A DNA stretch of 25,196 nt from an uncultured bacterium (GTDB lineage Bacteria > Babelota > Babeliae > Babelales > RVW-14): assembly GCA_963759805.1 (NCBI GenBank), contig CAVXAT010000003.1, positions 1 to 25,196 on the forward strand. The letters run 5' to 3'. Below are positions 4,096 through 25,196 of the stretch, in pieces. The notes below the pieces were generated by a model. The model was not told the DNA's origin, ran no database searches, and saw nothing but the letters and a program-made list of their open reading frames with translations. The position numbers and the translations under genes are program-made. The stretch's first letter is position 1. Every line of letters begins with the position of its first letter.

Positions 4096-4112
4096 CCCTT
4101 GCTCCTTTTAAA

Positions 4113-5638
4113 TTAGTCCCATTTAAACGGCGTTTTTAACCGTTCCTCTAACCATTTTCGGTCGACTTTAGAACAATGATCACATTTTTCTTTAAAATTT
4201 TGTAAAACATCTTTGTAACATTCTATTGCTTCACCACGTCTACCGAGCAAATCCAAAACCTCTCCGCGCCAAACTTTTATGCAATGACCGAATTCTTTCA
4301 ATTGTTCTGGATTTGATTTTGGAACTGTATGTTCGTACTGCTGCAGCGCATATAAAGCATTTTCATAAAAGACGTGAGCATCATTCTTTTGAGGGCTAAA
4401 AAAACAATGGAAAAATAGCCACCATGTTGAAGCTTCTTTAGATTTTGTTTTAACGGCTTGATCAAATAGAGCTAAAATTTTATTCTCGCGTTCCTGCTTA
4501 TCTTGCAAAGATTGTGCCATGACTATTTTAAGTTCAAAATCTGAAGGAGGGTTTGGCCATGTCAGCCTATTCCCAGGCCTGTATTCTATTTGAGTTTTAA
4601 CAGCTTTCTCTAAAAATGTTTGTAAAATATCAAAAAACTTTTCTGGTTCATCCCAAAAAATACGATGTCCTGATTTTTTAAAGATTTCTACTTGGGAATG
4701 TGGGTGATTTCTACGCATGAATTCTGCTTTATCTGTATCCCATGTTAAATCCCATTTTCCCTCAAATATCAAAGTTGGAATTTCAAAATCATCACACATT
4801 CCATCCAATCCAATTTTATCTTCGTCTGAGCAAATCAAGTCTCTAAATCCAGGGGCAGGGTTCCATTCATAAAGAGCTTCCCTAATAAATCCTTCAGGTG
4901 TTGGCTTATAATAAGATTGACGTTTCCAATCTCCAGTCAGATGCGCATTGTATAAAGCTTGCACCAAGGTGAGTTGACCATCACCTTCAGCCAACCAAAC
5001 TTTTCTTATTGCGGCTTGCTCTTCCTTTGAAATAAACATCTGTTGCCGACTGGGCTTCATTTTGACTTTTTTAAGTCCATCAGCTGCCGCTACGAGAATT
5101 AATCCATTAACGTTTTCTGGATAAGTTAGAGCATAGCATTGTGCTAAAAATCCGCCATAAGACCAGCCAAAAACAGCCCACTGATCAATTTTCAATGCTT
5201 TTCTTAAGCTTTCTAAATCTTCGACAGCTTGTCTGACGGAGTAGGTTTTGCCTGTATCATCTAGACTTGATTTACCTGTACCTCGCTGATCGTAATAAAT
5301 TATGTGGCAAAATCCTTGGCTCGAGAAAAACATGGGTGAAAATCGTGATGTGTGCCTCCTGGCCCTCCATTGATTAAAACTAGCGGAATCCCACGGCCTT
5401 CTTCTTCGTAATAAAGTTTGCCGTCTAAAATATCGATGAATCCCTTTTTTAGATCAAATATTTCATCGCACAGTGGCGGCAGTTTTGAAATATCAAGAAT
5501 CAATTTATCTGGAATATTTACAACTTTATCAAAAATTGTTTCACGTGTTGAAGTGTTACGAAACCAATCGCAAGCTGGTAATGCCAATGATAAAATAATC
5601 ACAGCAACAAATACTAGAATTTTGGTATTATCCCTCAT
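4113..5638 (-). CDS. Alpha/beta hydrolase (proline iminopeptidase-like) lipoprotein with C-terminal TPR; one frameshift near 5310
   Basis: Lipobox-like LALPAC, NGGPGG oxyanion motif, YDQRGTGKS, nucleophile GWSYGG, catalytic Asp/His regions (GKWD, SGH), TPR-like WRGEVLDLLGRRGEAIECYKDVL. One extra T in a T4 run joins AKDF-CHIIYYDQRG. Confidence 0.85.
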
Positions 5639-5669
5639 TAGAACTCCTTTTTTTGTTTCAACTCAAATA

Positions 5670-6762
5670 TTATTTTTTACTCAACACATCTATGGCGTTT
5701 TTAAATTCTTGTGATTCAAAATTATCCAAAATTTGGCTAAAAAAAGTTTTTAAAACCAGTAAGCCATTTTCAGGTTTACTTAAATCAATGCTACGAATTT
5801 CTTTTACGAAATCGATAAACGTGGGGGCTGTGATCAATCCATATTTTTGGATGGTTTCTGCTGGCACCCTCTTTAGCCAATCGAAAACCCATTTAAGCAA
5901 AATTACCTGCTTCATTAAATAAAATTTTGCATTTTCCGCAGCAGAGGGCTGTCGTCCAAGATATGTTTCAATCAATATTTTTTCATGATCAGAATCGGAA
6001 TAAAAATACGAGGCCACTGTTGCTACATCAAAATAAGGATCGCCTTGTCCAGCATCTTCATAATCAACTGCTTTAAATTCATTTCCAAGAAATATTAAAT
6101 TCCCGCCGTGTAAATCACTGTGACACGGTATATTCGTTGTTAAGTGAGGCAGAAGTGCTTGATGAATAGTAGATAAAGACTCGCTCAATTTTTGTTAATG
6201 GCACATAGTCGCTGTACTTAGGCTTTATTGTTTTGAATACCGTTGTTAATGCGACTAAAAACATTGAAATCAGAATTTTCAAAGGCTGGGCCATTGATGA
6301 ATTTTTTGTAAAAGGTAAGCCAACGCAATATAAAATTGATGCTGACAGCTAATAAATCTTTCCTGATAAACATTCTAAATTATGTCTTGCCAGACAAATA
6401 TTCCATGATCACAATTCCACGAGAAGTGTCTGAAAAATAAACCTGTGGCCCATAACCAGCATCTGAGCGATTTTTAAATTATGAATTTCTAGATCACGAC
6501 CTTTTTGAGATTTATGAGTGATGAATCGAGCAACATATCTCTTTGATTCTGATGTAACAGCAAATAATTGAGCTCCAGAATATCCACCTTTGAGATCCAT
6601 TGCAAAAACATCGCCGGATAATGATAGTTCATCCTTCACTACTGCCGCTGCATATTTTTCATCAATGCGCGGTGTTTTTTTATGTGTCCAAGCACAGGCT
6701 GACATCACCAATACCATAATAATGACAGCAGGCATCAATGCTAGCTTTTCAGTTTTCATCAT
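5670..6762 (-). CDS. APH/choline kinase-like phosphotransferase with lipoprotein signal; several frameshifts between ~6470 and ~6190
   Basis: Lipobox-like VMSAC, LKGGYSG loop, YVARF, shifted-frame DAGYGPQVY and IMEYL, Brenner motif CHSDLHGGN, VDYEDAG and DPYFDVA. Start ATG at 6762 or 6759 after AGGA. Confidence 0.8.
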
Positions 6763-7237
6763 AGTTCCTAATGTAGGCTTCAATTTTCTGAATTTTAACA
6801 ATATCCTTGTCTCTGCCCATTAATCTGTACAGCTCAATTGACTTTGTAAGTGGTAAAACAGGTATTTGAAAATTATCCAAATCAATAATATTTGGATGTT
6901 CCAATAGGTGCGACATTTCATACCATTGCCCATCAGCTTGTGATTTTACTTTAAAATTACACATAACTTCAATTGAGCAGCCATTAAGTAAAAATTTACC
7001 CATAGTTGAATCAATAATTACCGATGATGCAATTTTGGGTAGTTGAATTTTGTAGTCAATTAGTGCCTGATTTATTTTTAAAATTCCTTCTTCATCCGTT
7101 AAAATATCGATATCGTCTGGCTGAATTTGCATACCGTTGAGGGCTAGTCCACAACTGCCAAAAACCATCCACCGAACGTCTGCCGTAGCCATCTTTTTTG
7201 TGACAAGTTTTAATACATCAATAAATTTTTTATCCAT
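6749..7237 (-). CDS. Pol-beta superfamily nucleotidyltransferase (ANT(2'')/Lnu-like)
   Basis: WMVFGSCGLALNG...PDDIDILTD (hGS..DxD motif) and IEVM third acid. Start moved to MDKKF (7237) behind AGGA, avoiding overlap with the upstream gene. Confidence 0.8.
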   Translation of the reverse strand: MDKKFIDVLKLVTKKMATADVRWMVFGSCGLALNGMQIQPDDIDILTDEEGILKINQALIDYKIQLPKIASSVIIDSTMGKFLLNGCSIEVMCNFKVKSQADGQWYEMSHLLEHPNIIDLDNFQIPVLPLTKSIELYRLMGRDKDIVKIQKIEAYIRNYDEN

Positions 7238-7247
7238 TGGATTCCTG

Positions 7248-8612
7248 TCATTCAATTTTCTCAGCCACTGTATCCTGACCGTGTTCATGAACTACCAATT
7301 TTTCATCCTTGCCTGATCCATCGCTAATGAAAGAAATTTGTACATCTGCAGTTTTTAAGAAAAAGGTCGTCTCTGATTCTGGATGCATTACAAATTTTCC
7401 ATGTCCAAGTACTTCAACAAAAAAATTATCCTGTTCATTTGAAACAACAAATGTTAGATTTTTGTCTTTTGTCACATAAGTTCCTGTGTACTTATCATAG
7501 ATCTCATGGGGTAATGTAATGGCTGCTCGTTTTTTGGGATATTCGGGTTTTTGTCCAAAAACAATGTGCGCAAGATTTTCCGATATCACATTAATAAAGG
7601 CATCTTCAGAATTGCTTAACAAAATTATGCAAACGTTGCGATCTACATATCGATTAATAATTGTGAATGCTCCAGGATTTAATCCAGTATGCTGCGTAAG
7701 CTTGCCATATGGTGATTGTAAGACGTACCAGCCATATCCGTAATTATCTTTGTATGGTGTAAAAATTTGCGCCAAGTATTCTTTGGATGTTAATTTTTGG
7801 GTGTATAGCGCACGATCCCATAAATATAAATCTTGTACTGTCGAATATAAGCTTCCTGCTCCCACTTCAAATGACATGTCAAGGTAGCTTGCATTAACAA
7901 TTTCACCATCCATAATTACAGCATAACCTGACGCTTTATTTTTTATGATTCTCTTACCATCGTCGCATCCGGTGTTTTTCATGCTCAGAGGATTGAAAAT
8001 ATGCTCCTGTAAAAATGTTTCATATTTTTTACTTGAAGCTTTTTCGATGATATAAGTCAGTAAGATGTAGTTATTATCGGTATAATCATGTTTTTCTCCA
8101 GGCTCAGATTCCAAAGTCTTATTCTTAAATAACGCAATTCTAGTTTCGAGGGTCTGTGGTTGAGTCTTATTTGTTTTATATTCTGAATTGTTTAAATTTG
8201 GTATTCCCGATGTATGAGTCAGTAAATGGTGAATGGTAATCTTATCACCGTTCGGATAATCTGGAATGTATTTTGATACTGTATCATTAACACTTAACAA
8301 TCCCTGTTCCTGTAGTTGCATTATCGCCATTGCTGTAAATTGCTTTGTAATCGATGCTAATTTAAATTTGGTCTGAGCGGTATTTGGAATATTGTGTTCG
8401 AGATTTGCCATTCCATAGCCTTTACTCAATACAACATTTCCATCTTTGGCAACTAAAACAGAACCACTAAACCAACCCTGATCTACGTATGCATTGATGT
8501 ATGAATCAATCTTGGATTTAAGACTTTTACGTTTATGCCTAGCATCGCAACTTGATAAGGTTAATGCAGAAAAGCAAATGCTTAAGATAATAAAATTTTT
8601 CCTAATTTTCAT
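7248..8612 (-). CDS. Serine hydrolase, beta-lactamase class C/PBP-related, with C-terminal DUF3471; lipoprotein-like
   Basis: FKLASITKQF (SxxK), LLTHTSG, YTD at the YxN position, GAGSLYST, HTG, C-terminal KYTGTY...PESETTFF domain; N-terminal LSSC lipobox-like motif. Confidence 0.92.
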   Translation of the reverse strand: MKIRKNFIILSICFSALTLSSCDARHKRKSLKSKIDSYINAYVDQGWFSGSVLVAKDGNVVLSKGYGMANLEHNIPNTAQTKFKLASITKQFTAMAIMQLQEQGLLSVNDTVSKYIPDYPNGDKITIHHLLTHTSGIPNLNNSEYKTNKTQPQTLETRIALFKNKTLESEPGEKHDYTDNNYILLTYIIEKASSKKYETFLQEHIFNPLSMKNTGCDDGKRIIKNKASGYAVIMDGEIVNASYLDMSFEVGAGSLYSTVQDLYLWDRALYTQKLTSKEYLAQIFTPYKDNYGYGWYVLQSPYGKLTQHTGLNPGAFTIINRYVDRNVCIILLSNSEDAFINVISENLAHIVFGQKPEYPKKRAAITLPHEIYDKYTGTYVTKDKNLTFVVSNEQDNFFVEVLGHGKFVMHPESETTFFLKTADVQISFISDGSGKDEKLVVHEHGQDTVAEKIE

Positions 8613-8636
8613 AAGATCCTTACGATTTTATACCGT

Positions 8637-9809
8637 CTATTCGATTTTCTCGGCAATTATATCTTTATCATTTTGCCGAAGAATTAAACCGATAATTTTA
8701 CCCGTTTTATCTTTTATGAATGTTATTTGTGCCTCAAGTATTGTGTAGAAAAATTTGATCTCAGACTCTGGGAATATTTCAAGCTTTTCTTGATCTGTCG
8801 CCTGCGCGAATAGCTTGCCTGATTCCTCTGTTATGGTGATGATAAAATTTTCGCGTAATTTGTATTTACCAACATATTTTTTAAACTGAGATCTCTGGGT
8901 TTGGCTTAATTCTATTACGCTCGATACAAGATTTATTTTTTGTTGTTTTAAAAAGCTTACAATTTCATCTGCTAATTCTTTGGGTGTGTTTTTAGCATCA
9001 AGTATCAAATCATAAGATTGCAATGGAACAATAGAAACTTCCTCTAATGTATCCAACCTGAATTGTTGTACAAATTCTTTATATTCTTTTTCTTCTTGTT
9101 TGGTAATTTCAGCAGCATAATTTTTAAGTTCTGGTGGCAGATTTTTTAGAAACGAACTAATTGACGAATTTATCAGGTGTTTCATATCTTTACTTGAAAA
9201 ACAATCAAGAACTTGCTCAGATTTTGAGCTCTGCGGTTTATATAATAACCGATATTGTGAAATTGGTTGTATTGTTTCTCTATGCTCTGCAGATATACCT
9301 GTTAAATTACGCTTCTCAACGCGGCCTATTGTAATATCTAAAGGACAGTACAATAAAACCTTAACCAGCTTTATTGCTTTTGACAGGCAAGAAATTGCGT
9401 CAGATTCTGTATCACTCTCATTCGTTGGAACCGTATCAACCAAAATATTATGGCCTTTTAATGCTTTATATTTAATCAAAGAATAATAATCAGTAACCAA
9501 TTTTTTATCGAAATCATTTTCCAGTTTTGCTCTTGTTTTTATGTCTAATTCTTTCGATTGAAGTTGTTCTGGAATAGGATAAGATCTTGTAAATGTGTCT
9601 ATGTCGATTATTTCATATGTGCTTCCATACATTTTTTTCAGCTCATTGATGATCGATGTTTTACCCGAGGAAGATGTTCCCATTATCATGACAACCACAC
9701 CTGGCGTGCATCTATGGTGCCTTATAGCGACATACGTAAATGAGGCTAAGATTGCACCTAAAAACAGTGCTGCAGCAATTGTGCTTGAGCCTTTTTTTAA
9801 GATATTCAT
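8637..9809 (-). CDS. Chloramphenicol-phosphotransferase-like P-loop kinase fused to DUF3471, with N-terminal membrane anchor
   Basis: IMGTSSSGKTS Walker A, ILVDTV, VLLYCPL...RVEKR, YDLILD; the last ~85 aa align with the DUF3471 of the neighbouring serine hydrolase. Confidence 0.75.
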   Translation of the reverse strand: MNILKKGSSTIAAALFLGAILASFTYVAIRHHRCTPGVVVMIMGTSSSGKTSIINELKKMYGSTYEIIDIDTFTRSYPIPEQLQSKELDIKTRAKLENDFDKKLVTDYYSLIKYKALKGHNILVDTVPTNESDTESDAISCLSKAIKLVKVLLYCPLDITIGRVEKRNLTGISAEHRETIQPISQYRLLYKPQSSKSEQVLDCFSSKDMKHLINSSISSFLKNLPPELKNYAAEITKQEEKEYKEFVQQFRLDTLEEVSIVPLQSYDLILDAKNTPKELADEIVSFLKQQKINLVSSVIELSQTQRSQFKKYVGKYKLRENFIITITEESGKLFAQATDQEKLEIFPESEIKFFYTILEAQITFIKDKTGKIIGLILRQNDKDIIAEKIE

Positions 9810-9827
9810 ATGTAGAGCCCCTTCCTT

Positions 9828-12050
9828 TTAATCAAGATTATTCTTGGCAACTATTTTTTGCCAGTTCTCTTTTACCCATTGTTCTACAGCTTTTGTGTTT
9901 TTGATATCTCCAATAAACTCAACATCCGGATGGTATGGTTCATTATTTCCTCTTGGTCTATTTCTGTAAACTTTCATAGGGATGCTTAAATATCCCAATT
10001 TACTTGGTAAATCGATGGTTCTTGCCTGCATGTATAAACTATCTGCTCCTGTTGTTTGTCCAAAAAGTTTTATCGAATGATTAAGTGATTGAAGCTCATC
10101 AATGAAACGTAGGCTTGCACTTCCAGTATACTTATCCGTCAATACTATAATTTTAGCACGACAAAGATTTTGATTATTTTTGGACAAGGTACTTACTTCA
10201 TCTCTATCACAGAGCAAAGGAATATCCTTTTTTAGATATATAGCCATCGCGTCATATAATTTTTGCCGCTGTATTACGCCTTCACTGTTGTTACCAAATT
10301 CTTTTTTTAAATTTTTAATTAAATCGGAAAAATAGTTTAAATTATCCTTGCTTACTCTCCAATCAACGTACACATTTTTATCCATGTTATTAATTTTTTC
10401 ATTAACATAGTCATCACCCAAAAGAGCTTCGAGTATTTTTGTCCCCCAATAAGAGTCTCCACCTGTATTTCCTCGCAAATCAAATATAATTAATTTGTGT
10501 TTTCGATAGTTAGGTAGTTGTTCTATAATTTTATTTAAATCATCTTGTTGTTGATTATTTGGATTAAATGTTGGAATGGTTATCCAGGCCGTTTTAGGCA
10601 TAAATTCTTTTAGCTCGAAGTTTTTAACTTGAAAAAAATCTTGGGGTGCATTTTTCAATTTAACTTCCGTAGAAATATTTAAGTGTGAATCATTGAAGTG
10701 TTTCGCATATTTTTGCATTACTTCATCGTGGTCTTCAATCGTTTTGACTTTGTTAATAGAATCCAATGCTTCTTGATGTGCAAAATTTAAAGTTTTATTA
10801 AACTCTGGATCAAGCTCATTGTACGGGCCTGGATGATTTTCCATTATTGTTTTAGTGATAAATTCTATATCGGATTTTGCCAGGGTTTGAAGCTGATCCG
10901 CTGTAAAAATTTTATGTCCCAATTTTTCTTCAAAGAAACTTAAGACATTCGGCATAACCTCATTTATGAGAACCTGGCTGACCTTGCATGCTGGCCCATC
11001 AAGCAAATCAGGTTTTCTGTGCGAAGCAAATCGCATAATCAATGTTGAGTTCAATAGTAATGACGTATCAATAAATACAGCATGGCCAACATTCTTGACA
11101 GTAAAAACCTTTGTGTTGGAATTTTCAGCATCAGCAAGGCGATGTATCGTATCCAAGAACGGTTTAGTTTCAGTTGCATAAGCATGAAAGTTTTTATTAT
11201 AAAGAAAGCTTTTTTCTGCAATCATAAACAAGAACGGTTTAGAAAACGGCTCAGCTATATCTTCACTTTGTGCACCGCCATCCATATTAATCCCACACGT
11301 TACTCGTGGATCTTTGCGAATAACTTTGGTAGCAGTCCTTCCTCCAAATGAATGCCCCATGATTCCAATCTTATTTGAATCGGCAAGGCTCCAGAAAACA
11401 TCTTTGGCTGAAACCAGCTCTTCAATTTTGTTGAGCACAAAGCTAACGTCTTGTGCGTTGGCTTCCACCAGTTGGGCTTTTCCTTTTGCATCACGAGTCT
11501 TTTCTCGATACATTGATTTAACAATGCGTCCATTAGGATAACGAACTGTTGCTGCGTTGTATGGATGATTAATTCCGACAACTATAAAACCATGACTTGC
11601 AAGTTCTTCTAGCATATATGTATATTGCTGAACCACCACACCTCCTCCATGTGAAAAAATGATGACTGGAAAAGGCTTTGAAGATTGCTCGACGATGGCA
11701 TTAGGCTGCGAATATGTTTTTATGGATTTTATTCCACTGAAAACAAATTTGGGTAAGCTAAAAGTATTGGATAGAAATTCTACGTGACTTTCTGCTGCGT
11801 CTGGATCATAAGAAACCCTGTTATCACTTTTATTTGTTGGGTAATAAACGTAAACCATGAGCTCGCGATTTGGATGCTCGGTATCTTCCGCGTTTTCTTC
11901 CTGGCGAGAGTTATCGATCCAATGATATTTCATCAGACCAACCCCGTATGATCCAGATGGCTGTGGAAAGTTAGAGATTGGCACGAAAATGAATGCGCAT
12001 GCCACTACGATTAAGCAGCTAGGTATTAAAATGTAAAATAATTTGTGCAT
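9828..12050 (-). CDS. Fusion of PAF-acetylhydrolase-like alpha/beta hydrolase and S41-family peptidase
   Basis: N-half: PSGSYGVG, RELMVYVYYP, PVIIFSHG, EELASHGFIV, GHSFGG, INMDG, GH. C-half: ENHPG, FNDSHL, WITIPTF, IFDLRGNTGG, VLTDKYTGSAS, GQTTG. Confidence 0.85.
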   Translation of the reverse strand: MHKLFYILIPSCLIVVACAFIFVPISNFPQPSGSYGVGLMKYHWIDNSRQEENAEDTEHPNRELMVYVYYPTNKSDNRVSYDPDAAESHVEFLSNTFSLPKFVFSGIKSIKTYSQPNAIVEQSSKPFPVIIFSHGGGVVVQQYTYMLEELASHGFIVVGINHPYNAATVRYPNGRIVKSMYREKTRDAKGKAQLVEANAQDVSFVLNKIEELVSAKDVFWSLADSNKIGIMGHSFGGRTATKVIRKDPRVTCGINMDGGAQSEDIAEPFSKPFLFMIAEKSFLYNKNFHAYATETKPFLDTIHRLADAENSNTKVFTVKNVGHAVFIDTSLLLNSTLIMRFASHRKPDLLDGPACKVSQVLINEVMPNVLSFFEEKLGHKIFTADQLQTLAKSDIEFITKTIMENHPGPYNELDPEFNKTLNFAHQEALDSINKVKTIEDHDEVMQKYAKHFNDSHLNISTEVKLKNAPQDFFQVKNFELKEFMPKTAWITIPTFNPNNQQQDDLNKIIEQLPNYRKHKLIIFDLRGNTGGDSYWGTKILEALLGDDYVNEKINNMDKNVYVDWRVSKDNLNYFSDLIKNLKKEFGNNSEGVIQRQKLYDAMAIYLKKDIPLLCDRDEVSTLSKNNQNLCRAKIIVLTDKYTGSASLRFIDELQSLNHSIKLFGQTTGADSLYMQARTIDLPSKLGYLSIPMKVYRNRPRGNNEPYHPDVEFIGDIKNTKAVEQWVKENWQKIVAKNNLD

Positions 12051-12057
12051 TTCTTCC

Positions 12058-13008
12058 TTACGGTATAGCCTGAACTGGTTTAAACTTGTTCTTATTACTC
12101 ATCTTCTTCTGATCCAGAATTTCTTTTGCCTCAAAATAACTTATATAGTCATCATCGTCACGCTGTTTCATCAACTCATGTTGAAAACGTGCGACTTCTA
12201 TATCAAGACCATCCATTGGCTGATTTACTGTAGCAGCTTTGTAAACAAACCCCTGACATTTAATTCCCATTTTCTTCATTTCTTCAACAACAGATTCAAC
12301 GTTTTTACGTCTATCATCAAAGAAGTAAACACATGAAGGTTTACATTTAACTTTTTCAAGAAATGTTTTTAAAACAACGCCCTTGGGAAAATAGCTTGCA
12401 CACGCTATTCCTTTATAAAAAACTACCGGTGTTGGATCTTTGTCTCTTTCTGCCTTATATTTTGCAGCATGCTCAGTTTTTTGTAACTCATCAAACCTGA
12501 TCTCTTGTTGCTCAAAGCTTGAACTGAAATCAAGACCTAGGGTCAAAAGCTCCTCATATCGTTGTTCTTCTAAACGATCGATCAAACCAATCTTGCCGGT
12601 ACTAACAAGTGTTAAAGCAATAACTTTAATACGTCGTTTTTGAATGGCTAGAATGGCATCAATCAGTGCTTGCTCGATTGGATGGACTTTCGTTTTTAAA
12701 ATCATTTTGCTTAAAAATAAATCCCAATGTTCTTCACCATTTTTCTTTGCTTTCATAAATGCAAAAAAGTCATCTGTTATTTTTTTTAATTCAGGGTTGT
12801 TGACAAACCGCGCCTGACCGACCGGATCTATTGATTCCAGAATTACGTAATCAACATCAAAAACGAATAAATCACTTGGAGATGCTTGATCAAAAACAGA
12901 TTTAACCTCTTGAATTGAGTTGATCTCTTTAATGTCTGACTTAGAAAAAGAACAGGCTGGTAAAATAGCCAGCATATAAAATAAAAAATTGTATTTAGAA
13001 ACCTTCAT
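12058..13008 (-). CDS. DUF2608 HAD-like hydrolase, lipoprotein-like
   Basis: FVFDVDYVI (motif I), VIALT, FYKGI, KGVVL, YFFDDRRKNV (motif IV); LPAC lipobox-like motif; RBS GGAG. Confidence 0.8.
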   Translation of the reverse strand: MKVSKYNFLFYMLAILPACSFSKSDIKEINSIQEVKSVFDQASPSDLFVFDVDYVILESIDPVGQARFVNNPELKKITDDFFAFMKAKKNGEEHWDLFLSKMILKTKVHPIEQALIDAILAIQKRRIKVIALTLVSTGKIGLIDRLEEQRYEELLTLGLDFSSSFEQQEIRFDELQKTEHAAKYKAERDKDPTPVVFYKGIACASYFPKGVVLKTFLEKVKCKPSCVYFFDDRRKNVESVVEEMKKMGIKCQGFVYKAATVNQPMDGLDIEVARFQHELMKQRDDDDYISYFEAKEILDQKKMSNKNKFKPVQAIP

Positions 13009-13079: not shown

Positions 13080-14386
13080 CTATTCAATAAGCTTATTTTC
13101 TTGAACCAGCTTGCTATTTGTTGTTCCAACATACCAAGCGACAGGAATCCAGGCTGCAATAATTCCAAGCGATATAATTGATCCGTAAACAAGGAGCTCA
13201 GATAATACAGGAAATAGAGCATTTACCACAGAGCCCATACTCTTTGATGTTCGTCCACCAAATGCATCAACCCAACCCTTTGCTTTGAATTTGACATCCT
13301 TACTCGTTGGAATATACATAATTTCTTTACATGGATTATTCAAGGCATAACTCAATCCCTTGATTCCTACAACGCATGCAAGAAAAACGTAAAGCGATGG
13401 AAGACTCCATGCATACAGCACGAAACCCGCAATGGATAATGGATATAAAATCAAACAGGTAGTTAGTCCAAATTTTCTTATAAAAAAGCTTGTACCAACT
13501 AAGGCAAAAAGAAATGATATGCTGTTGACCGCAACGCCTTGCATTCCCAAAAAGGATGCAACTTTTTCGATAGAACCAAGTGATTGCTTTGCATAAAAAT
13601 TCATTTGATATTCAAGAATTGTGGTAATAATTTCGTAGGTTATAGAAACAACCAAAATTCCCATAAGGTATGGTTTCGTCCCTATCAAGCGTAACCCTTC
13701 AAAAATACCTGTGGATTTTTTTTCTTTACGGTTGCCATCGTTTGCTGTTTATATTTTTGTGAAAAGATTCTGATCAAAAAAGGAACAATGAGAACCAAGC
13801 AGGCAGCAATACCAACCAATGTTGGAACCCCAATGATTGATGCTAATGTCATAACAGCAACAGATCCTAATATCGAACCAAGCTGTGCTCCTGCTAAAAT
13901 CAAAGGGTATCCCTTTTTTGCAGATGCTGTATCCATAATACTTGCAACATAAGCCCAAAAAAGAGAAACAACTATTGATCCGAAGGCTTCAATGCCTACA
14001 TATAAAAACCATCCGAATAAACGATATTTGCTTGCATCAGTATTTGCAATGCCAATTGTTGGATGTGCAGCAAAATATGCTATTGAAAAGTATAAAACGG
14101 CGAAAAAACTTGTAATAACATAAATCAGGTTGGTTCTTTCAAACCAGTCGATTAACTTGTTATAAAAAAGTACAAGTAATGTTATTGAAACTAATGAAAC
14201 CATTTTTGCATACGGAAGACCTGTTGGGCCAACGATGTTCATAAATAATGCATTTTTTAATTCACGCATCATCCAGTAAGAACCAATGATGAAAAAAAAG
14301 ATTGCTGAAAGAAATCCAAATTTCTTTGCTTCTTCTAGCGAGATTTCGCCCCATAAAAAATGAACTACTTTTGTGATACAAGACAT
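13080..14386 (-). CDS. TLC/Npt-family NTP/NDP (ATP/ADP) exchange transporter; one frameshift in an A8 run near 13720
   Basis: FFFIIGSYWMMRELKNALF, PYAKMVS, SLFWAY, AKKGYPLI..GAQLG, KGLSYALNNPCKEIMYIPTSKDVKFKAKGWVDAFGGRTSKSMGS. Adding one A gives KKKKSTGIFEGLRLIGTKPY. Confidence 0.92.
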
Positions 14387-15263: not shown

Positions 15264-16402
15264 TTATTTGTCGCATTTAAAATTAGATAGCCTTAGGGGT
15301 TTAAATTCACTTAGTTGTTTATGTATAATTTCAAACGAGTCTGTTTTTCTTGGAAGATTAAGCAACTTTAGTTCTTGAATTTTTTGTCCCAAGATCGTTG
15401 GCTGCATTTACCAAATAATACCTTAAGTTCGCGCTGATTCATATTATCCAGTGCCATTATTAATCCAAATTTTTGCAAAACATTTTTTGAATTCATATTT
15501 GGATTGTTTATGGCCAAAGCAGTTAAAAGTGGTATTTGGTTTGTTTTTTTATAGTCAAAATTTGGTGGAATGCTTGACTCCACTTCGTGCATGTAATGCT
15601 GTAGTACGCGCTGTGAAATTGATTCACTAAACAACTCTTTGAATTTTAACCCCACATTTATTTTCAGTAACTGAAACAGAGGATTAATTTTTTTGGGGCT
15701 ATTTAATCGTACTTCAAAACGTAGCACCTCAAGCATGTACGTTTTTTGTAGATCGCTTAGAATGCCTAATTGTATAGCGTTGTCATCTTCATTTGTACGC
15801 TTTTCGCTTTTATTTGCAGCCATTAAATCCTGTATTTTATCGTAGAATGCTATCTCATATGAATTGCAATGCATTTTAAAACAGTGCCCGCCATTTCTAT
15901 AGTCCTTTTCATTCATATCAAGAATTTTGCTAATATCCGAATTTCTTATCATTCTAATAAAATGAACAGGAAGTACTCCATCAGTTAAATGAATGTTTTT
16001 TGAATAGTGAATTGCATGTATTTTGGCATTTGCAAGATTTTCAAGAGAAACCTTAACACCCATGTTATCTAATTTGGTTTTTAATTTTTCAGTAACTGCC
16101 ATGAAATCATTCTCCTCAAGTTCATCAAAATTGTTGCCATGCATGAGTTTAGGAAGTGAGAGTTCAACTTTAAGAGTAAGAACAAAACCTGCCTGGAATT
16201 GCCGTCTAGTAAGGGTTAGGCGGGGCTTATACACTCCCGCCTGCAATTCTTTTTTTGTTGGATTTTGTTTTGCAAATACGTATCCATTTTTTCCCACCTT
16301 AAATTTGTTTGAGAGAATCCAGCTAGCAGATGGGTCAAATTTATCTGGTTCAATTATCTGAAAATTTTCGCTATTTAAAATCAAAATTACTGTGTCTATC
16401 AT
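15264..16402 (-). CDS. Phage/plasmid replication initiation protein (gene II/X, CRI/Rep_trans-like); frameshift in an A6 run near 15383
   Basis: MIDTV, YKPRLTL, VELSLPKLMHGNNFDEL, AIHYSKN, IAFYDKIQD, VLRFEVRL. One extra A extends the C-terminus to ...IQELKLLNLPRKTDSFEIIHKQLSEFKPLRLSNFKCDK*, ending just before the RBS of the next gene. Confidence 0.75.
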
Positions 16403-16667
16403 ATGATTTAACTACTTCTTCAAATTTTGAAATTACTGCCGCTTCCACAAGATCCCCAACTTCTTTACTTATTGGATGAAATACATTGAAGTTGCCAATA
16501 GATCCTTTCCTGGTTGGATAAGTTAACCTATATCCACCTTGAGCACGTGTAAAAATACCTATTGAGCCCAGAAAGAAACTGTTATCAAAGACTATGCTGG
16601 CAAAACCAACTAATCCGTCTTTTGCTTTAATTGGTATTATTTGAATTTCGCTTACCTTCGCTTCCAT
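16371..16667 (-). CDS. SpoVG-family nucleic-acid-binding protein
   Basis: KVSEIQIIPIK..DGLVGFASIVFDNSFFLGSIGI....GGYRLTYPTRK....FHPISKEV...VEAAVISKF matches the SpoVG pattern. Confidence 0.8.
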   Translation of the reverse strand: MEAKVSEIQIIPIKAKDGLVGFASIVFDNSFFLGSIGIFTRAQGGYRLTYPTRKGSIGNFNVFHPISKEVGDLVEAAVISKFEEVVKSYDRHSNFDFK

Positions 16668-16818: not shown

Positions 16819-16915
16819 TGAGCTCCCATTAGAAATTTGATGAACGGGCCAAGAGGTGGTTTCTTTTGGTTAAAAAATTAAATACTTTATAGCTTAAGAG
16901 TAAACCTAGCCCTGC

Positions 16916-16942
16916 AAATTAAGCGGGCCCCACTAAAGCCCA
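16916..16942 (+). repeat. 27-bp exact direct repeat, copy 1
   Basis: AAATTAAGCGGGCCCCACTAAAGCCCA, identical to 24024-24050. Confidence 0.95.
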
Positions 16943-18776: not shown

Positions 18777-20466
18777 TTAACCATTCTTCTTGAAAAGCGT
18801 GTTATAATAATAGTTTTTGCAACAATTCAAATCATGCCTTAAGTGCGGCTGCTGCTGCCTTTTTAACATTAACATTTGAATAAGGCTATGGGCTAATGTA
18901 TGAGGCTGTTTCTTTGGTCTGATTACCAAAATAGGGTTCAACTTTAAGACTTGTGCAAACGGTCTGGATATTTTGTGCGCTACAATGGAGATCGATTTCG
19001 TGGTTGCGAAATGCACCAACGCATGTTGATCAGTAAAATTCAAGATAAAATCAAACGGTTTATTGGCTCTGAATCGAACTTCTCGACCATCTAGGGTAAG
19101 GTTCTGGAAGACCAATTTTATCAAAAGTCTTCTTTCTTCGATGTTTAGAATTTAAAAATAGCTCAGGAGCTCGGCTTAGCAGATCCAGAAGGTATTTTGC
19201 CGTTATTTCGTAATTATCGTCTGTCTCTTTAATCATGTAAAGCTTGCCTTCGATCTCAGAGATTTTCTCTACAAGCTCTTGACGATATTCGTCATATTCT
19301 TCCGCAGTAATACTCCCTTTGTTTTTATCCCAGTAAAGATTACGCTTCATTTTGTTTAAGGTTTCATGTTCCTTATTCAATTCATCAAGTTGTTTGTGTT
19401 TGAATTCTCTTTTTTCCCCACGAACAAGCTCGAGATTATTTGAGATTTTAACTGCGACATCTTGCGGGATTTGCATACGTCTAAAAAAATTAGCAATTTG
19501 CTCTGTGATTTCTTCTTCCTTCATATATGGTAAAGTATGCTTTGCTCTCTTTTTACTGCAATAATAATAAAAGTGGCCTTTTTTGTCTTCCGGAGTGATA
19601 GCATGATTGCATTTGCCACAAAGAATTAAGCTGCGATAAAAAAAAGCTTTTCCGGCGTATTTGAATCGTCTTTTGTTGAAACTTGCTTTATGCTGCTGAA
19701 CTTGGTCAAAAAGTGCCTTAGAAATAATAGGTGGGTAACGATGAGGGTATTCTTGCCCGTTCCAGCTCATGATTCCATAATAAAATTTATCTCTAAGAAT
19801 CCTGTCTGCGGTTCCTGGTTGCCACGTAATTCCATAATCATCTTTTAGCCTAAGGCATAGCAGCTCCATCGAATACCCCCTGGTTCCATACAACTCAAAC
19901 GTCTTTTTCACGATATTGGATGTATATTCGTCTACAACAATATCTGTTTTACTGTCTGAAATGGTTATGTTTTTATAGCCATAATGCGCCTTGCCTGGAA
20001 ATTCGCCCTTACTTAGCTTTTGCTCCTGAGCGCGTTTAACATTGTCGCTTATTGCATCAGAGTAATATTTTGACAATCCCAAACTCATACTAAAATTAAA
20101 TTTTTCTGCTGCGGAAAGTCTGCTATTTATGATCTGCCCGTCCGACGCAAAATGAAGTTCAATTCCATCATTTAGTGCCTTATCGTAAAGTACAGAGACC
20201 CGTTTATCGAAAACGTTTCTGGATAGCCGATCAACTTTATCAAAACATACAGCAACTTTATCCTTTTGTTTGATTACAAAATCTAAAATTGCATCAAAAT
20301 CTTTTCTTTTATTCTTATATGCGCTTTCATCAAAGCTGAATTCTTTGAGCAGTTCAAAGCCTTTATTCTGGCAATATTTTTTTAATCTTTCAATTTGCGC
20401 TGGGAGTGAGTTTCCCGCTTCTCGTTGTTCCTCGGTGCTAACACGTGCAATTATTATGGCTTTCAT
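18777..20466 (-). CDS. Large serine recombinase (catalytic, recombinase, Zn-ribbon and coiled-coil domains); frameshift near 19145, 3' end uncertain
   Basis: ARVSTEEQ (catalytic Ser), DKVDRLSRN, YGY, ILRDKFYYG, PIISKALFDQVQ, CGKC...YYYC. Removing one A gives SNIEERRLLIKLVFQNLTLDG...KPFD. RBS GAGG. Confidence 0.92.
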
Positions 20467-20586
20467 TTTTACCTCTTAAATTTTTAAATTATTTGGATTA
20501 TCATTATTTAACATTTATGCTTTAAAATCAACACATTTCAAGCATTTTCAACGTGCACTTTTTGTTACTGTTTAACATAAATTTAA

Positions 20587-20626
20587 GCGATAGAAGTCTC
20601 CCTTGATAAAAAAAAACTCCTATCGC
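20587..20626 (-). terminator. Long G.U-rich hairpin between the mini-recombinase and recombinase genes
   Basis: Minus strand GCGAUAGGAGUUUUUUUU-loop-AAGGGAGACUUCUAUCGC pairs fully only with G.U wobbles, so it is strand-specific. Confidence 0.45.
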
Positions 20627-20705
20627 CCTGATTTGTGTCGCTATATGGTATTTTCTTCAATTACCATTACATTAGATCGCCTTCGAAATCAAACAAATCC
20701 ACCCA

Positions 20706-20753
20706 GCCCGCTCGTGGTGAGCTTGTCGAACCATCGCCCATGGGGCGGCGGGC
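20706..20753. repeat. Solitary REP-like palindromic element
   Basis: GCCCGCTCGTGGTGAGCTTGTCGAACCATCGCCCATGGGGCGGCGGGC is a GC-rich patch containing the widespread TGAGCTTGTCGAA core, an outer GCCCGC/GCGGGC stem and an inner CGCCC/GGGCG hairpin. Confidence 0.55.
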
Positions 20754-20786
20754 AGATTTTCAAAAGAGATCTATTGTTTCTTTCAG

Positions 20787-21230
20787 CTACTCTCCACTGA
20801 TGGTTTCGCCTAAAGTTTGTGTATAATGCTTGGCTAATAAAAAACTTAAGTGAAATCTAAATTTATCAACTGCAGTAGAATTTTTGTCTAGAATCAAACA
20901 CTCTGATAGAAAATGTAGTTCAATTTCACCCTTTATTGCTTGTTCAAATAGTTGATGCGCTTTATCATTGAAGATTTTGTGAATCAAATGATTCTCGCGA
21001 TCAAAACAAACAGCAACTGGCTCATGCTGTTCTGCAAGTGCATTGATTATTTCATCAATTTTGTCTTGCTGTTTTTGATATGATTTTTTGCCCAGGCTAA
21101 ATTCTTTGACAACATCAAGTCCCTTTTTCTGACAATAAAACTTCAGACGTTCGATTTGGGCTGACAACGAATTATTTGCATCTTGTTTTTTGTTGCTAGA
21201 TTGAGCGATAATTATGGCTTTCATATTCAT
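20787..21230 (-). CDS. Stand-alone serine recombinase catalytic-domain paralog lacking the catalytic arginines
   Basis: Collinear with the first ~145 aa of the downstream recombinase (MKAIIIA, NSL.AQIERLK.YCQ.KG, KEFS, VAVCFD, IELHF, KF.F), but ARVS becomes AQSS and DRLSR becomes NHLIH. Confidence 0.85.
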   Translation of the reverse strand: MNMKAIIIAQSSNKKQDANNSLSAQIERLKFYCQKKGLDVVKEFSLGKKSYQKQQDKIDEIINALAEQHEPVAVCFDRENHLIHKIFNDKAHQLFEQAIKGEIELHFLSECLILDKNSTAVDKFRFHLSFLLAKHYTQTLGETISGE

Positions 21231-21287: not shown

Positions 21288-21575
21288 CTATATCATTACA
21301 TCTTCATCTCCTTTCCATTGCATCATTTGTCGAACAAATTTTCTTTCTAAAATTGCTTGATTTGTATAGCGACCATGCCTAAAATTCGCCTTAGCCGCAC
21401 GTTCTTTGCCTTGTTGAGTCTTTGGTCCAGTTGATAAGCCTCCGTGCAATCTACACCGACCATTTTTCATTGCCGGCTGCCGGCATGGTTGATGATTATT
21501 TCTTCGAGATTTTGCTCCGCATCTTTTAGCTTGCAATAACACCTTGGCAAGAAGTAGACCCCTACTTTTTTTCAT
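21288..21575 (-). CDS. HGGxSTG-domain protein
   Basis: RCGAKSRR....CRQPAMKNGRCRLHGGLSTGPKTQQGKER...ANFRHGRYT; start set at ATG 21575 behind GGAGG. Confidence 0.9.
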   Translation of the reverse strand: MKKSRGLLLAKVLLQAKRCGAKSRRNNHQPCRQPAMKNGRCRLHGGLSTGPKTQQGKERAAKANFRHGRYTNQAILERKFVRQMMQWKGDEDVMI

Positions 21576-22272
21576 TGTCCCCTCCCCCCTGGTTAATTTG
21601 ACCATTTACTACAGCTTGGCCACCACTTCCGACATTTACATGCTGAACAGTAACCTTTTGCTCTCCTTTGCGCCTGTATCGATTAAGAGTCTCTAGTGTT
21701 TCGTTATAAACACGCATAAGTTTCGTTGCTCTGTTTACATTTAGATCCACGCCTTCAGGTGTTTGTGCAGCATTTGAAGCTCTGCTCATAAATTCCATGT
21801 AATGGCTGTGAAGAGCAATAAGGCGGGTGCAAAGCATTCCCTCAAATTCGTCTTTTGGACTAAGTGATAATAATGCAGCATTAATTGAATTAAGCATTTC
21901 TGCTTGGTTATCTTTTGAATTTGTAAAAAGTGCATTGTAGGCTTGCGCTTGTAACATAGCTGCAAATCCAAAATCTGCCGATCCATAAATGGCGTAATAA
22001 TTTGCATTAACCAAATCAAAACTTGGATGATCTGGACGGGTTCCTTCAGCCGCTAAGGTTGTAACTTTTTTTCCGTCTTTATCTTCAGTGATATTTTGCT
22101 TAAATTTGAAGCAAGGCGTTGAAATTTTTATTTTCTCTTCCCATTGAGAAAGTCGCTCAGCATCAATCTCTTTTTGTGTTTTTTGAGTAGACAAAGGTGA
22201 ATTTGTAGGTAAGGTTTCTTTCATGCTTTCATTGGTAATGGGTAGTGATTTCTTATTTGCATCCTCAATCAT
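21562..22272 (-). CDS. Conserved hypothetical protein, typical partner of HGGxSTG genes
   Basis: PKDEFEGML...LIALH...M...NRATKLMRVY...LETLNRYRRKGEQKVTVQHVNVGSGGQAVV; overlaps the HGGxSTG start; AAGGA RBS. Confidence 0.75.
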   Translation of the reverse strand: MIEDANKKSLPITNESMKETLPTNSPLSTQKTQKEIDAERLSQWEEKIKISTPCFKFKQNITEDKDGKKVTTLAAEGTRPDHPSFDLVNANYYAIYGSADFGFAAMLQAQAYNALFTNSKDNQAEMLNSINAALLSLSPKDEFEGMLCTRLIALHSHYMEFMSRASNAAQTPEGVDLNVNRATKLMRVYNETLETLNRYRRKGEQKVTVQHVNVGSGGQAVVNGQINQGGGDNEKK

Positions 22273-22308: not shown

Positions 22309-23940
22309 TCAATAGCTCCCTGTTGTGGAAATAATTTTTGTAGTTTTGGCCTTATTTCGTGATTTCTTTCTTCCGATAGCAAAAATTGTTTTAATTCTAA
22401 AAGATGCGTTCAACCGGTTTGTAACAGATTTTGTAAATCCATGATTTTTCAAAATATCCAGTTGTTTTTGAGTTGGTGGTAGATTGTGTGCCTCTTTGAC
22501 CCAATATCCATTTAAGTCGGTAAAATTCATGCTAAAATTCTCATACGCATATTTCTCACAAAGTTCAATGCAGCTGGATAAAGACTTTTGAAGAAGAAAC
22601 GTACGTACTTCCTTACTCATACAATTATGCGTTATAACAAGTCCATTTTCATGAGGTTTGATAATAACTTCATTCTTATTATCATCGTCTGTAAGTGATA
22701 TTTCATCGTCTCCGATATCTGCCCAGAAAAAGGTTGACTGAATACCGCGTATATCAAATTCATGATCAATATCTTTTAACGTTTTTATTCGTGAAATCCG
22801 TTTACTACGTTGATGCTCTTCCTCTTGATCTCCGTCCTCACGAATTATTTTAGCTTCGGGAATTATCTGATTTAATGAAATAATAAAACGCATATTGTGG
22901 TATCGATCTGTAAAGTCTAGAACTAGGCAATTCTCCTTCCCCTGATGGATTCTTAAACCTCTTCCTATCATTTGAGTGTATAGCAACGTACTTTTTGTTG
23001 GTCTTGCCATAACAATTGCCGTAGTAGAAGGTTCATCAAACCCCTCCGTTAAAACTATACAAGAGGTTATGACTTGAATTTTACCTTTTGCAAAATCAGA
23101 TAACACTTTTTTACGCTGCCCTTTGTCCATAGCCCCCCAGACAGCTTTAGCTTTGATTCCCTGATGATTAAATTCTTCGGCAAGATCATGACAGTGTTTT
23201 ACATTCACGCAAAAGACTATGGCCTTACGATTTGATGCATATTCCTTAAATTTATCGACAACGAATTTATTGCGATCTTTGGTATTAACCACAGTAGCTA
23301 ATTCTTTAGCGACAAAATCACCTTTATCAGAATGCACCTTGCTTAGGTTAAAACTGGTTAAAATTCGTCGGCCAATTACATCGGATAGGTAACCAGCCTT
23401 TATTAGTTCGCCAATAGTTATTGAATAGACCAATTTGCTGAAAACTTGTCCTAGTTCATTTTTATCCGATCTCATTGGTGTTGCGGTTACACCAACCAAA
23501 AGCTTTTCTGAATTGTCTAAAAAACCCAGATTCTTAATTATTCTTTGATATGAATTTGCCGGTGCATGGTGAGCTTCATCGATCATAAAAAGGTCAAAGC
23601 CCATTTCTTCAAGTTTCTTTAAATTCCCTGGCCTACTGCAAGTTTGAACCGAGGCTATAATAATTTGAGCCGCTAATTCTTTTTTTTCGGCATTATAGAT
23701 TCCAATATTGGCTTCTGGCCAGTACTTTCGAAAAGTCTTTTTCGTTTGTTGAATTAGTTCATCCAGATGAGAAATAATTAGAGCTTTTTTATTGAGATGT
23801 TTTGCGATGGCCGCCATCAGGATAGTTTTACCACCTCCTGTTGGAATAACTATAAGTTGACGGTTAATGCCGTTTTGAGATTCTTTTATTACGCAATCAA
23901 GAGCTTCTTTTTGATAGTTTCTTAGTGCCATTTGATCCAT
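22309..23940 (-). CDS. SF2 DEAH-box helicase (ResIII/Irc3-like)
   Basis: LRNYQ Q-motif, PTGGGKT, IDEAHH, VTATP, AIVFC, LTEGFDEP, ARPTKS, QMIGRGLR, CLVLDF; C-terminal PTQKQL motif. Confidence 0.93.
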   Translation of the reverse strand: MDQMALRNYQKEALDCVIKESQNGINRQLIVIPTGGGKTILMAAIAKHLNKKALIISHLDELIQQTKKTFRKYWPEANIGIYNAEKKELAAQIIIASVQTCSRPGNLKKLEEMGFDLFMIDEAHHAPANSYQRIIKNLGFLDNSEKLLVGVTATPMRSDKNELGQVFSKLVYSITIGELIKAGYLSDVIGRRILTSFNLSKVHSDKGDFVAKELATVVNTKDRNKFVVDKFKEYASNRKAIVFCVNVKHCHDLAEEFNHQGIKAKAVWGAMDKGQRKKVLSDFAKGKIQVITSCIVLTEGFDEPSTTAIVMARPTKSTLLYTQMIGRGLRIHQGKENCLVLDFTDRYHNMRFIISLNQIIPEAKIIREDGDQEEEHQRSKRISRIKTLKDIDHEFDIRGIQSTFFWADIGDDEISLTDDDNKNEVIIKPHENGLVITHNCMSKEVRTFLLQKSLSSCIELCEKYAYENFSMNFTDLNGYWVKEAHNLPPTQKQLDILKNHGFTKSVTNRLNASFRIKTIFAIGRKKSRNKAKTTKIISTTGSY

Positions 23941-24023
23941 ACAATTTCCTTGCAGTTTTCCTTACGTTTTCATATGTAAAAAATAATTAATAAAAACTAT
24001 CTTAAATTTAATATATGACTTGA

Positions 24024-24050
24024 AAATTAAGCGGGCCCCACTAAAGCCCA
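24024..24050 (+). repeat. 27-bp exact direct repeat, copy 2
   Basis: AAATTAAGCGGGCCCCACTAAAGCCCA, identical to 16916-16942. Confidence 0.95.
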
Positions 24051-24103
24051 CTATTTAAAAAAGACTGAATTTTACGTGATAAAATCAAGCCCAGAATTCA
24101 TTT

Positions 24104-24131
24104 TTGACTTTAAAAGCCGTTCTGGTAACTT
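24104..24131 (+). promoter_or_regulatory. Sigma70 promoter for T-box/aspS
   Basis: TTGACT (24104-24109), 16 bp, TGg-TAACTT (24123-24131); the predicted start lies a few nt before T-box Stem I. Confidence 0.6.
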
Positions 24132-24141
24132 AAATTCGAGA

Positions 24142-24375
24142 GGCGATGACGATGCTGACACATCTGAGCCAAGGAAAGAACGCCGAATTTGATTATCAAG
24201 TTTGTTTAGGACAATCCTTCGGGTGTGCCCGTGATAGCACAAAGTCATACCAGTGCATGGTGAGGCTGAGGGGTCAGACTGAATTGATCTGGCAAGTAAG
24301 GTGGCACCGCGAACAGCAATTCGTCCTTACATATTTATTAGGCAACTTATTAAATTCTGCGGGAGCCAAATATGT
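24142..24375 (+). ncRNA. T-box riboswitch with ultrashort Stem I, Asp (GAC) specifier, probably translational
   Basis: Stem I GGC-GAU-GA-C-GAUG-[CUGACA]-CAUC-UGA-GCC (24142-24170); Stem II AAGGA/UCCUU with AGAA; pseudoknot CGG/CCG with GUGC/GCAC; T-box GUAAGG-UGGCACC-GCGAA...UUCGU-CCUUAC (24296-24330); directly upstream of aspS. Confidence 0.9.
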
Positions 24376-25196
24376 TTTCAGAACAACGAATTTTATCATC
24401 TAATCTTAAGAACTATCTCAATAAAACAGTTAGTGTATCTGGATGGTTGCATAAGAAGCGCAATCTGGGGAAAATTGCCTTTCTTGTTGTACGTGACAGG
24501 CACGGGCTCATGCAGATCTTATTTATAATCAAACAGAAATAGCCAAGCTTGAACATTTACATCAAGGCTCGATACTCAACATTTCCGGTATGGTTGTTGA
24601 TGCCCCAAAAACTCAATTTGGTTGTGAATTACACAACGCTTCAATCGAAGTTGCCGTCGCCGTAATAGATCCAAGTCCAGTTGAAATAGATAAGCCAATT
24701 GATCATCGGCAAGAAGTTCTGGCTAACATTTTTGATTGGCGGATTCTGACCATGAGAAATGTAACAGAGCAAGGCATATTCAAAATTCAATCTGGTGTGA
24801 GTGATGCAATTCGTTCATTTTTAACGTCAAATGACTTTGTTGAATTTCACAGTCCAAAATTACTCGCTGGTTCAACTGAAGGTGGAGCTAAAGTTTTCAA
24901 ACTTGATTACTTTGGTAAGCAGGCAACGCTTGCTCAATCTGCTCAATTCTATAAACAGATTATGGTTGGAGCATTTGAACGTGTATTCGAATTTGGTGCA
25001 ACTTATCGCGCAGAGCCAAGCATGACATCTCGTCATCTAACTGAATTCATAACAGTTGACGTTGAGATGGGTTTTATAAATGGCATGGAAGATATTATGC
25101 AGACAATCAACGATATGATCCTGCATGTGGAACAAATCGTTCTGGCAAACTTACGAAAAAGAACTGCTCGCACTTAATGCAACAAAACCTTTGCTC
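24372..25196 (+). CDS. aspS: Non-discriminating (archaeal-type) aspartyl-tRNA synthetase, 3' partial; frameshifts near 24518 and 25140
   Basis: GGGAG RBS and ATG 24372: MFSEQRIL...VSGWLHKKRNLGKIAFLVVRDRHGLMQ (OB fold), then FVEFHSPKL, TEGGAKVF, LAQSAQFYKQ, FERVFE, YRAEPSMTSRHLTEF. His in GWLH and Pro in DAPK fit the non-discriminating type. Confidence 0.92.

Follow-up and report, generated by a model that had tools for sequence, protein, structure and literature searches.

Introduction

Why would a mobile element encode a stand-alone copy of the catalytic domain of its own class of integrase, stripped of three catalytic arginines? This question is raised by a short gene, referred to here as mini, which lies upstream of a large serine recombinase (LSR) gene. 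The arginines of the R-x-S and D-R-x-x-R motifs are catalytic residues of serine recombinases. LSR dimers are described as being held together by the catalytic domains and helix E (PMC3783163), and the step from dimer to tetramer is presented as a key control point of these enzymes (PMC11722253). The stretch of DNA analyzed, the window, has a length of 25,196 nucleotides and comprises the whole of contig C3 of a 1.5 Mb genome (G000). The ATP/ADP translocase and the small size of this genome point to a protist parasite of the Babelota type as the host. Its relevant features are collected in Table 1.

Table 1. Coordinates of mini, the neighboring integrase and further features of the window.
Feature	Position	Strand	Remark
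Mini gene	20787-21230	(-)	147 aa; LSR catalytic domain and first part of helix E; without DNA-binding domains
HGGxSTG-domain gene (NF041373)	21288-21605	(-)	directly upstream of mini
236-aa gene, no known family	21562-22272	(-)	adjoined by the HGGxSTG gene in 15 of 16 related loci
Superfamily-2 helicase (ResIII + Helicase_C)	22309-23940	(-)	first gene in the order helicase, 236 aa, HGGxSTG, mini
Interspersed palindromic (REP-like) repeat	20678-20783	.	just after the mini stop codon
20-pair hairpin, terminator-like	20585-20628	(-)	between mini and integrase; consensus match only
Two sigma-70-like matches	20497-20531	(-)	before the integrase gene; consensus matches only
Large serine recombinase (PF00239 + PF07508 + PF13408)	19060-20466	(-)	catalytic motif preserved; in the assembly, reading frame interrupted toward the C-terminus
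Second frame with family-typical recombinase C-terminal strands	18777-19124	(-)	relatives run from here into a tRNA gene
30-base direct repeat	16913-16942 and 24021-24050		upstream of the SpoVG-like gene and the helicase
SpoVG-like gene	16371-16667		relatives in LSR elements
344-aa gene, no known family	15368-16402		relatives in LSR elements
Split ATP/ADP translocase	13080-14386
Run of same-strand genes	2300-13008		likely island cargo

Sequence and Predicted Structure of Mini

The mini ORF contains no internal stop codon, and its product aligns with residues 1-143 of the neighboring LSR with 58 of 143 identities (41%), a single gap and an E value of 2e-36, in agreement with the original prediction of an uninterrupted, nearly gapless counterpart of the catalytic domain. 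The PF00239 domain spans the whole ORF and is recognized by a narrow margin (24.5 bits against a curated cut-off of 23.3). It is not accompanied by the helix-turn-helix of the resolvase/invertase or IS607 type, and neither PF07508 (Recombinase) nor PF13408 (zinc-ribbon), which would mark a complete LSR, gave a match in mini. Assignment as an IS607 transposase or as YneB was rejected at 15.6 and 19.5 bits, with cut-offs of 110 and 175, respectively. The C-terminus is located inside helix E, ahead of a conserved K-R, and no remnant of a DNA-binding domain was found in the spacer between mini and the integrase (best E value 0.05 over 119 queries); the ORF thus ends before the DNA-binding domains, as had been predicted.

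The expected loss of all three active-site arginines is borne out. In integrase numbering, R8 is replaced by Q, R80 by H and R83 by H, and D79 is additionally changed to N, while the nucleophile S10 is retained, a point absent from the original prediction. This serine (S12 in mini numbering) is invariant in all five known minis, and the arginines of the R-x-S and D-R-x-x-R motifs are Q, H and H in each of them, so that none carries the motifs of an active recombinase. The predicted retention of the hydrophobic core was likewise observed: relative to 165 close LSRs, 47 of 54 hydrophobic family columns are still hydrophobic in mini, a fraction of 0.87 as compared with 0.74 +/- 0.06 in neutral simulations, while only 15 of 48 conserved polar columns are retained.

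An AlphaFold model (pLDDT 83), whose input alignment included LSR domains, places a helix at residues 120-146 and predicts an alpha/beta core with a long helix E, i.e., the catalytic fold of serine integrases. The top Foldseek matches of this model are serine recombinases (E value 1e-5, TM 0.6), the best one being the catalytic domain of the TP901-1 integrase. The core strands and helix A remain near the LSR consensus (7/7, 12/17 and 7/8 columns). Helix E, which is 93% conserved among the 165 LSRs, matches the consensus at 10 of 27 columns in mini and at 4 of 27 in a further protein, P0340, and an invariant glycine is replaced by leucine; the excess of conserved-column loss in helix E over the core is not significant (P 0.47). 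The alternating hydrophobic face of helix E is retained. A complex prediction for integrase residues 1-160 and mini, run without controls, gave a score of 0.02, which is weighed neither for nor against binding.

Mini Shows Signs of Purifying Selection

Four homologues of mini were identified, one with 79% identity (P0002) and three with 93-96% (P0003, P0004, and P0005). All five sequences, mini included, have a length of 145-149 aa, share the identical dead motif and are free of stop codons and frameshifts. Among 56 other short proteins obtained by profile search, both motifs were judged by eye to be intact in 53 and were cut or changed in three; the 53 motif-intact proteins look like ordinary LSR fragments.

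Comparison of the mini gene with contigs of four runs yielded 22 listed differences, none of which is an indel (35 of 43 per-contig differences appear in the underlying table). Half of the 22 are silent, corresponding to a pN/pS of 0.26-0.40 with P values of 0.002-0.03 depending on the transition bias. Ten fall within one 23-base tract of a single run, which has likely recombined, and if this tract is excluded, 6 of 12 differences are silent (P 0.02-0.09). The run contigs probably overlap with the homologue protein records and are therefore not a sample separate from P0002-P0005. Almost all amino acid-changing strain differences (10 of 11) are located in codons 111-130, in or beside helix E. 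P0001 and P0002 differ by 31 changes, which are of a more conservative kind than neutrality would predict, with a mean BLOSUM score of 0.42 vs. about -0.3 (P about 0.01).

When the integrase domain was allowed to drift neutrally to 50% identity in simulations that did not count indels, an open frame survived in 6 and 12 of 600 runs, and the stem leading to mini has accumulated about 1.1 changes per site without a break or a remnant. As a control, nine short-frame LSR matches from related genomes were considered. Eight of them keep all five catalytic residues and one shows a single change; in eight of the nine, the rest of the LSR gene is present in another frame or past an insertion. The marks of a pseudogene, namely stop codons or frameshifts, a remnant of the lost part and a neutral pattern of change, are absent from mini, which shows signs of purifying selection. 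The original prediction had taken divergence without stop codons as selection for a non-catalytic role and had named the absence or random truncation of homologues, together with a dN/dS near 1, as the outcome that would speak against it. Instead, the four homologues have the same length, with no sign of random truncation, and pN/pS lies well below 1, which supports selection for a non-catalytic role.

One run contains a divergent tract at the 3' end of the gene (20803-20859) that still encodes a mini-type helix E and reaches a stop codon at about the same length. The end of P0004 is of the same kind, and it follows that more distant mini alleles likely exist and recombine.

A Specific Pairing of Mini With the Neighboring Integrase Is Not Supported

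The pairing of mini with this particular LSR, as implied by the original prediction, is not supported. Ranked by identity to mini, the neighboring enzyme is only the 71st of 161 recombinases, the closest LSR family members reaching about 40-46%, and a sister relationship of the two, as expected for a local duplication, received a p-AU of 0.14, which neither establishes nor dismisses it. One run contig can be aligned in parts to the window between 24207 and 20499, two others extend as far as 20499, and all three then differ from the window at this point, 33 bases before the start of the integrase gene, which shows that mini is kept while the downstream DNA differs. Among the leaders compared, only that of the LSR of a related genome, G014, both resembles the diverging end of run X7 (3 mismatches in 15) and leads into a family-type start. 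As a sequence resemblance, this weakly hints that another LSR may follow mini in the X7 strain.

A fused reading of mini and the integrase was ruled out by the 320 bases with a repeat and stop codons that separate them. The core of the REP-like repeat has 35 matches on 11 contigs of G000 and a folding z of -2.5, and the repeat matched no Rfam family at the gathering score.

The description of the neighbor as an active paralog could not be confirmed, as its catalytic motif is kept while its C-terminal strands are out of frame, the last ~40 family residues being encoded in another one. This frameshift may be an assembly error: over 1540 bases at its end (23656-25196), the contig overlaps contig C15 of the same genome at 99.5% and differs from it by three single-base indels, one of which breaks a tRNA-synthetase gene in the window; in C15, this gene stays open over 300 codons. 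A similar error may account for the split ATP/ADP translocase. In the protein collection, no relative of the window integrase exceeds 63% identity. A tRNA gene is found close to the LSR in 35 of 42 related loci (L008-L049), and in two aligned tails (G001:C49 and G004:C55) the coding end reads into the tRNA 3' end. Neither a tRNA gene in the window nor an att partner for its element was found.

The Upstream Module

The genes preceding mini form a module whose parts recur elsewhere. Of 261 genomes, 16 have relatives of the 236-aa gene, and primase-like, helicase or LSR genes often lie in their vicinity; a literature search under the term HGGxSTG returned no entry. The order of the 236-aa gene, one further gene and mini is found again in an NCBI assembly (MFH1254648.1 and MFH1254650.1, two accessions apart) and in the run contigs. 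Mini itself is absent from all 16 related module loci. The nearest relative of this element, G014:C12, carries a full LSR gene directly after its helicase, 236-aa and HGGxSTG genes and lacks mini, indicating that mini is dispensable.

Rarity and Recurrence of Dead Catalytic Domains

In a survey of 261 genomes of the phylum, matches to the catalytic domain were obtained in 101 genomes (210 places); the mini form was found only in G000, which contains six other matches to the domain. A full profile scan, of which the best 150 of 625 matches were considered, added 147 new proteins. Among these best 150 matches, the mini family forms one small cluster at 50% identity, and three further proteins are short, cover nearly the whole domain and have several dead catalytic residues: P0309 (139 aa), P0230 (145 aa), and P0318 (151 aa).

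The proposed search for homologous short ORFs beside LSRs thereby uncovered another dead domain that immediately precedes an LSR. At locus L073, P0309 ends in a stop codon that shares bases with the start of an LSR gene; 19 codons of this gene, with an intact R-x-S motif, lie before the end of the contig. The upstream gene fragment at this locus is related to the 344-aa gene of the window, suggesting an element of the same kind, and the upstream neighbor of the dead domain there is not the helicase module. P0309 shares 35% identity with mini, and a test of a single origin of the two gave a p-AU of 0.5, compatible with one origin or two. The same value was obtained for a common origin of mini and P0340, which share 7 residues at 38 jointly derived sites; a weak single-sequence model of P0340 (pLDDT 59) has the same order of secondary structure elements as mini. 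P0230, encoded on a contig of 706 bases, groups with a different LSR class and, if a real gene, would therefore have a separate origin. Taken together, mini is a rare but recurrent pseudoenzyme gene of LSR elements that is under selection.

P0230 also matches TIGR04323 (LIC12192 family, 122 positions) weakly, at 16.9 bits with a cut-off of 55, and this short family may also be resolvase-like. A 174-codon frame at L074 (G210:C68:500-2393) belongs to another LSR class, has one changed catalytic arginine and is not accompanied by a remnant within 1.3 kb; it could be either a pseudogene or an early mini.

Scans of JGI metagenomes, GTDB genomes and IMG/VR for mini returned no match beyond one ordinary LSR. 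In GTDB, no place matched a pattern designed to detect dead domains whose end lies 95-125 bases ahead of an LSR start; this pattern represents one codon choice and one spacing and would miss the spacing of the window itself. A short dead partner was found at none of 80 viral LSR loci, the plasmid search for mini gave one distant match annotated as a recombinase, and a PDB sequence search gave no real match. In the ESM Atlas, mini retrieved resolvase clusters of 150-155 aa.

Comparison With Known Systems

Mini shares its fold, helix E and the nucleophile serine with the TP901-1 integrase's catalytic domain (PF00239, PDB 3bvp). It differs from LSR catalytic domains in being a separate gene, in the replacement of R8, D79, R80, and R83, and in the absence of the recombinase, zinc-ribbon and coiled-coil parts. 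Directionality factors are, like mini, small, non-catalytic, element-encoded and located near the LSR gene (PMC12286644; PMC3783163). As far as described in these sources, however, they bind the junction of DBD2 and the coiled-coil, and none is named there as derived from an integrase catalytic domain; the function of mini, in turn, is putative.

A precedent for an inactive domain that regulates active subunits by protein contact is given by the accessory subunits of Tn3/gamma-delta resolvase (PMC9943657). Unlike mini, they are described as full copies with a DNA-binding domain, and their S10A forms are engineered (PMC9943657). Adi of phage ICP1 resembles mini as a small protein that modulates an LSR in a conflict between elements (PMC9638900). 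It is, however, encoded by the phage and makes the LSR destructive, and the abstract indicates no paralogy to recombinases (PMC9638900). Several serine recombinase genes per element, some of them in tandem, are reported for SCCmec (CcrA/CcrB/CcrC) and for gin of Bacillus cereus (girA/girB/girC; PMC5595907). In that account, the Ccr genes and the three gin genes are described as recombinase genes, unlike mini (PMC5595907). The neighboring LSR scores far under the Ccr cut-offs, and mini matches no Ccr model.

The titles and abstracts searched, largely of papers outside subscription journals, contained no natural dead catalytic-domain gene beside an LSR; lists of candidate directionality factors in paper supplements could bear on the novelty of mini.

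Possible Functions of Mini

As the fold is kept while the ability to grip and cut DNA is lost, the simplest action of mini would be to join LSR subunits and spoil them. It is tentatively proposed that mini acts as a protein brake which binds subunits of the LSR family and prevents the formation of cutting complexes, a reading that we prefer without considering it secure. In this model, mini would be expressed at the end of one unit with the helicase, 236-aa and HGGxSTG genes and would bind an LSR subunit through the core that it has kept and through the hydrophobic side of its helix E. The resulting mixed dimer would hold only half an att site, so that the cut by four subunits could not be completed. 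Such a brake would limit excision of its own island as well as entry or excision of sister islands. Its target is likely the LSR family rather than one cognate enzyme, since mini stays while the downstream DNA differs and since six other domain matches exist in G000. Several observations speak against a brake: the divergence of helix E, the clustering of strain changes at codons 111-130, the absence of mini from G014:C12, its presence in 1 of 261 genomes, and the hairpin and promoter-like sites (consensus matches) that separate mini from the integrase. In particular, the match of its helix E to only 10 of 27 consensus columns weakens a simple heterodimer picture.

A broader generalization, according to which mobile elements repeatedly convert a copy of their integrase catalytic domain into an independent pseudoenzyme with control over the LSR family from within the dimer or tetramer, is conceivable but somewhat doubtful. 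If true, it would add a yet undescribed control layer, distinct from directionality factors that bind the coiled-coil, and might act as immunity between sister islands competing for tRNA sites. A dead catalytic domain that tunes integrases would represent a second control route beside factors acting on the C-terminal part. It would offer integrase engineering a ready means to turn recombination off or to change its direction, and would clearly exemplify the origin of a pseudoenzyme in an enzyme of a mobile element.

Alternatively, the domain might have been recycled outside of recombination, for example as a partner of the helicase, the 236-aa protein, the HGGxSTG protein or a host protein, and would then lie beside the integrase merely by origin. 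This is rather unlikely, although the stable neighbors of mini in the NCBI assembly and the run contigs are indeed the upstream genes. The old active-site face also appears to have been remodeled first and preserved afterward: within residues 47-57, 2 of 11 positions agree with the LSR consensus and all 11 are identical between P0001 and P0002, and within residues 78-100, 6 of 23 agree with it and 21 are identical, both segments having been chosen after seeing the data. With loops fixed beforehand, the contrast is not significant (7/44 vs. 24/101 differences, P 0.38). Furthermore, the dead domain of L073 is coupled to an LSR and has another upstream neighbor than the helicase module, and the leader-like end of run X7 weakly suggests that an LSR comes next in that strain, too.

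A role as positive cofactor or directionality factor, in which mini would serve as a coiled-coil decoy or push against the catalytic domain at its regulatory corner and thereby switch or stimulate recombination, is judged unlikely. Inactive catalytic domains are described as working at accessory sites in Tn3 resolvase (PMC9943657), and directionality factors are reported to have varied folds (PMC12286644). In addition, the core strands and helix A of mini, though not helix E, have stayed near the LSR consensus, and the start-stop overlap in L073 suggests matched amounts of dead domain and LSR. However, resolvase accessory subunits are positioned by DNA-binding domains, which mini lacks, and the directionality factors described in PMC12286644 bind the DBD2/coiled-coil junction. 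An essential excision factor should also be common, whereas mini is missing from the 16 related module loci and from the 260 other genomes, and the DNA downstream of mini varies between strains.

Finally, mini could be the slowly decaying remnant of the former integrase of the element, which survived a deletion and has since travelled with the module, given that it occupies the position of the full LSR in G014, that broken LSR genes are common in the phylum, that its family is a single small cluster at 50% identity among the best 150 of 625 matches, and that the changes R to Q, R to H, D to N, and E to K would each require one G-to-A step, as in the usual A+T-rich drift; this is improbable in view of the control frames, in most of which all five catalytic residues are intact and the remainder of the gene lies in another frame or past an insertion (8/9 each), and of the long stem of mini without stop codons, its pN/pS below 1 and its conservative changes.

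Other Features of the Element

Insertion of the element in comM was ruled out, as comM is whole on another contig. The two copies of the 30-base direct repeat are alike at 29 of 30 positions, and a shared promoter or operator is possible. Relatives of the SpoVG-like gene and of the 344-aa gene occur in LSR elements of related genomes, and G000 also has its own separate SpoVG gene. The run of same-strand genes shows Pfam matches of the hydrolase, beta-lactamase-family, phosphotransferase, and aminoglycoside-adenylyltransferase-like type and is likely island cargo, some counterparts being located beside the G014 element.
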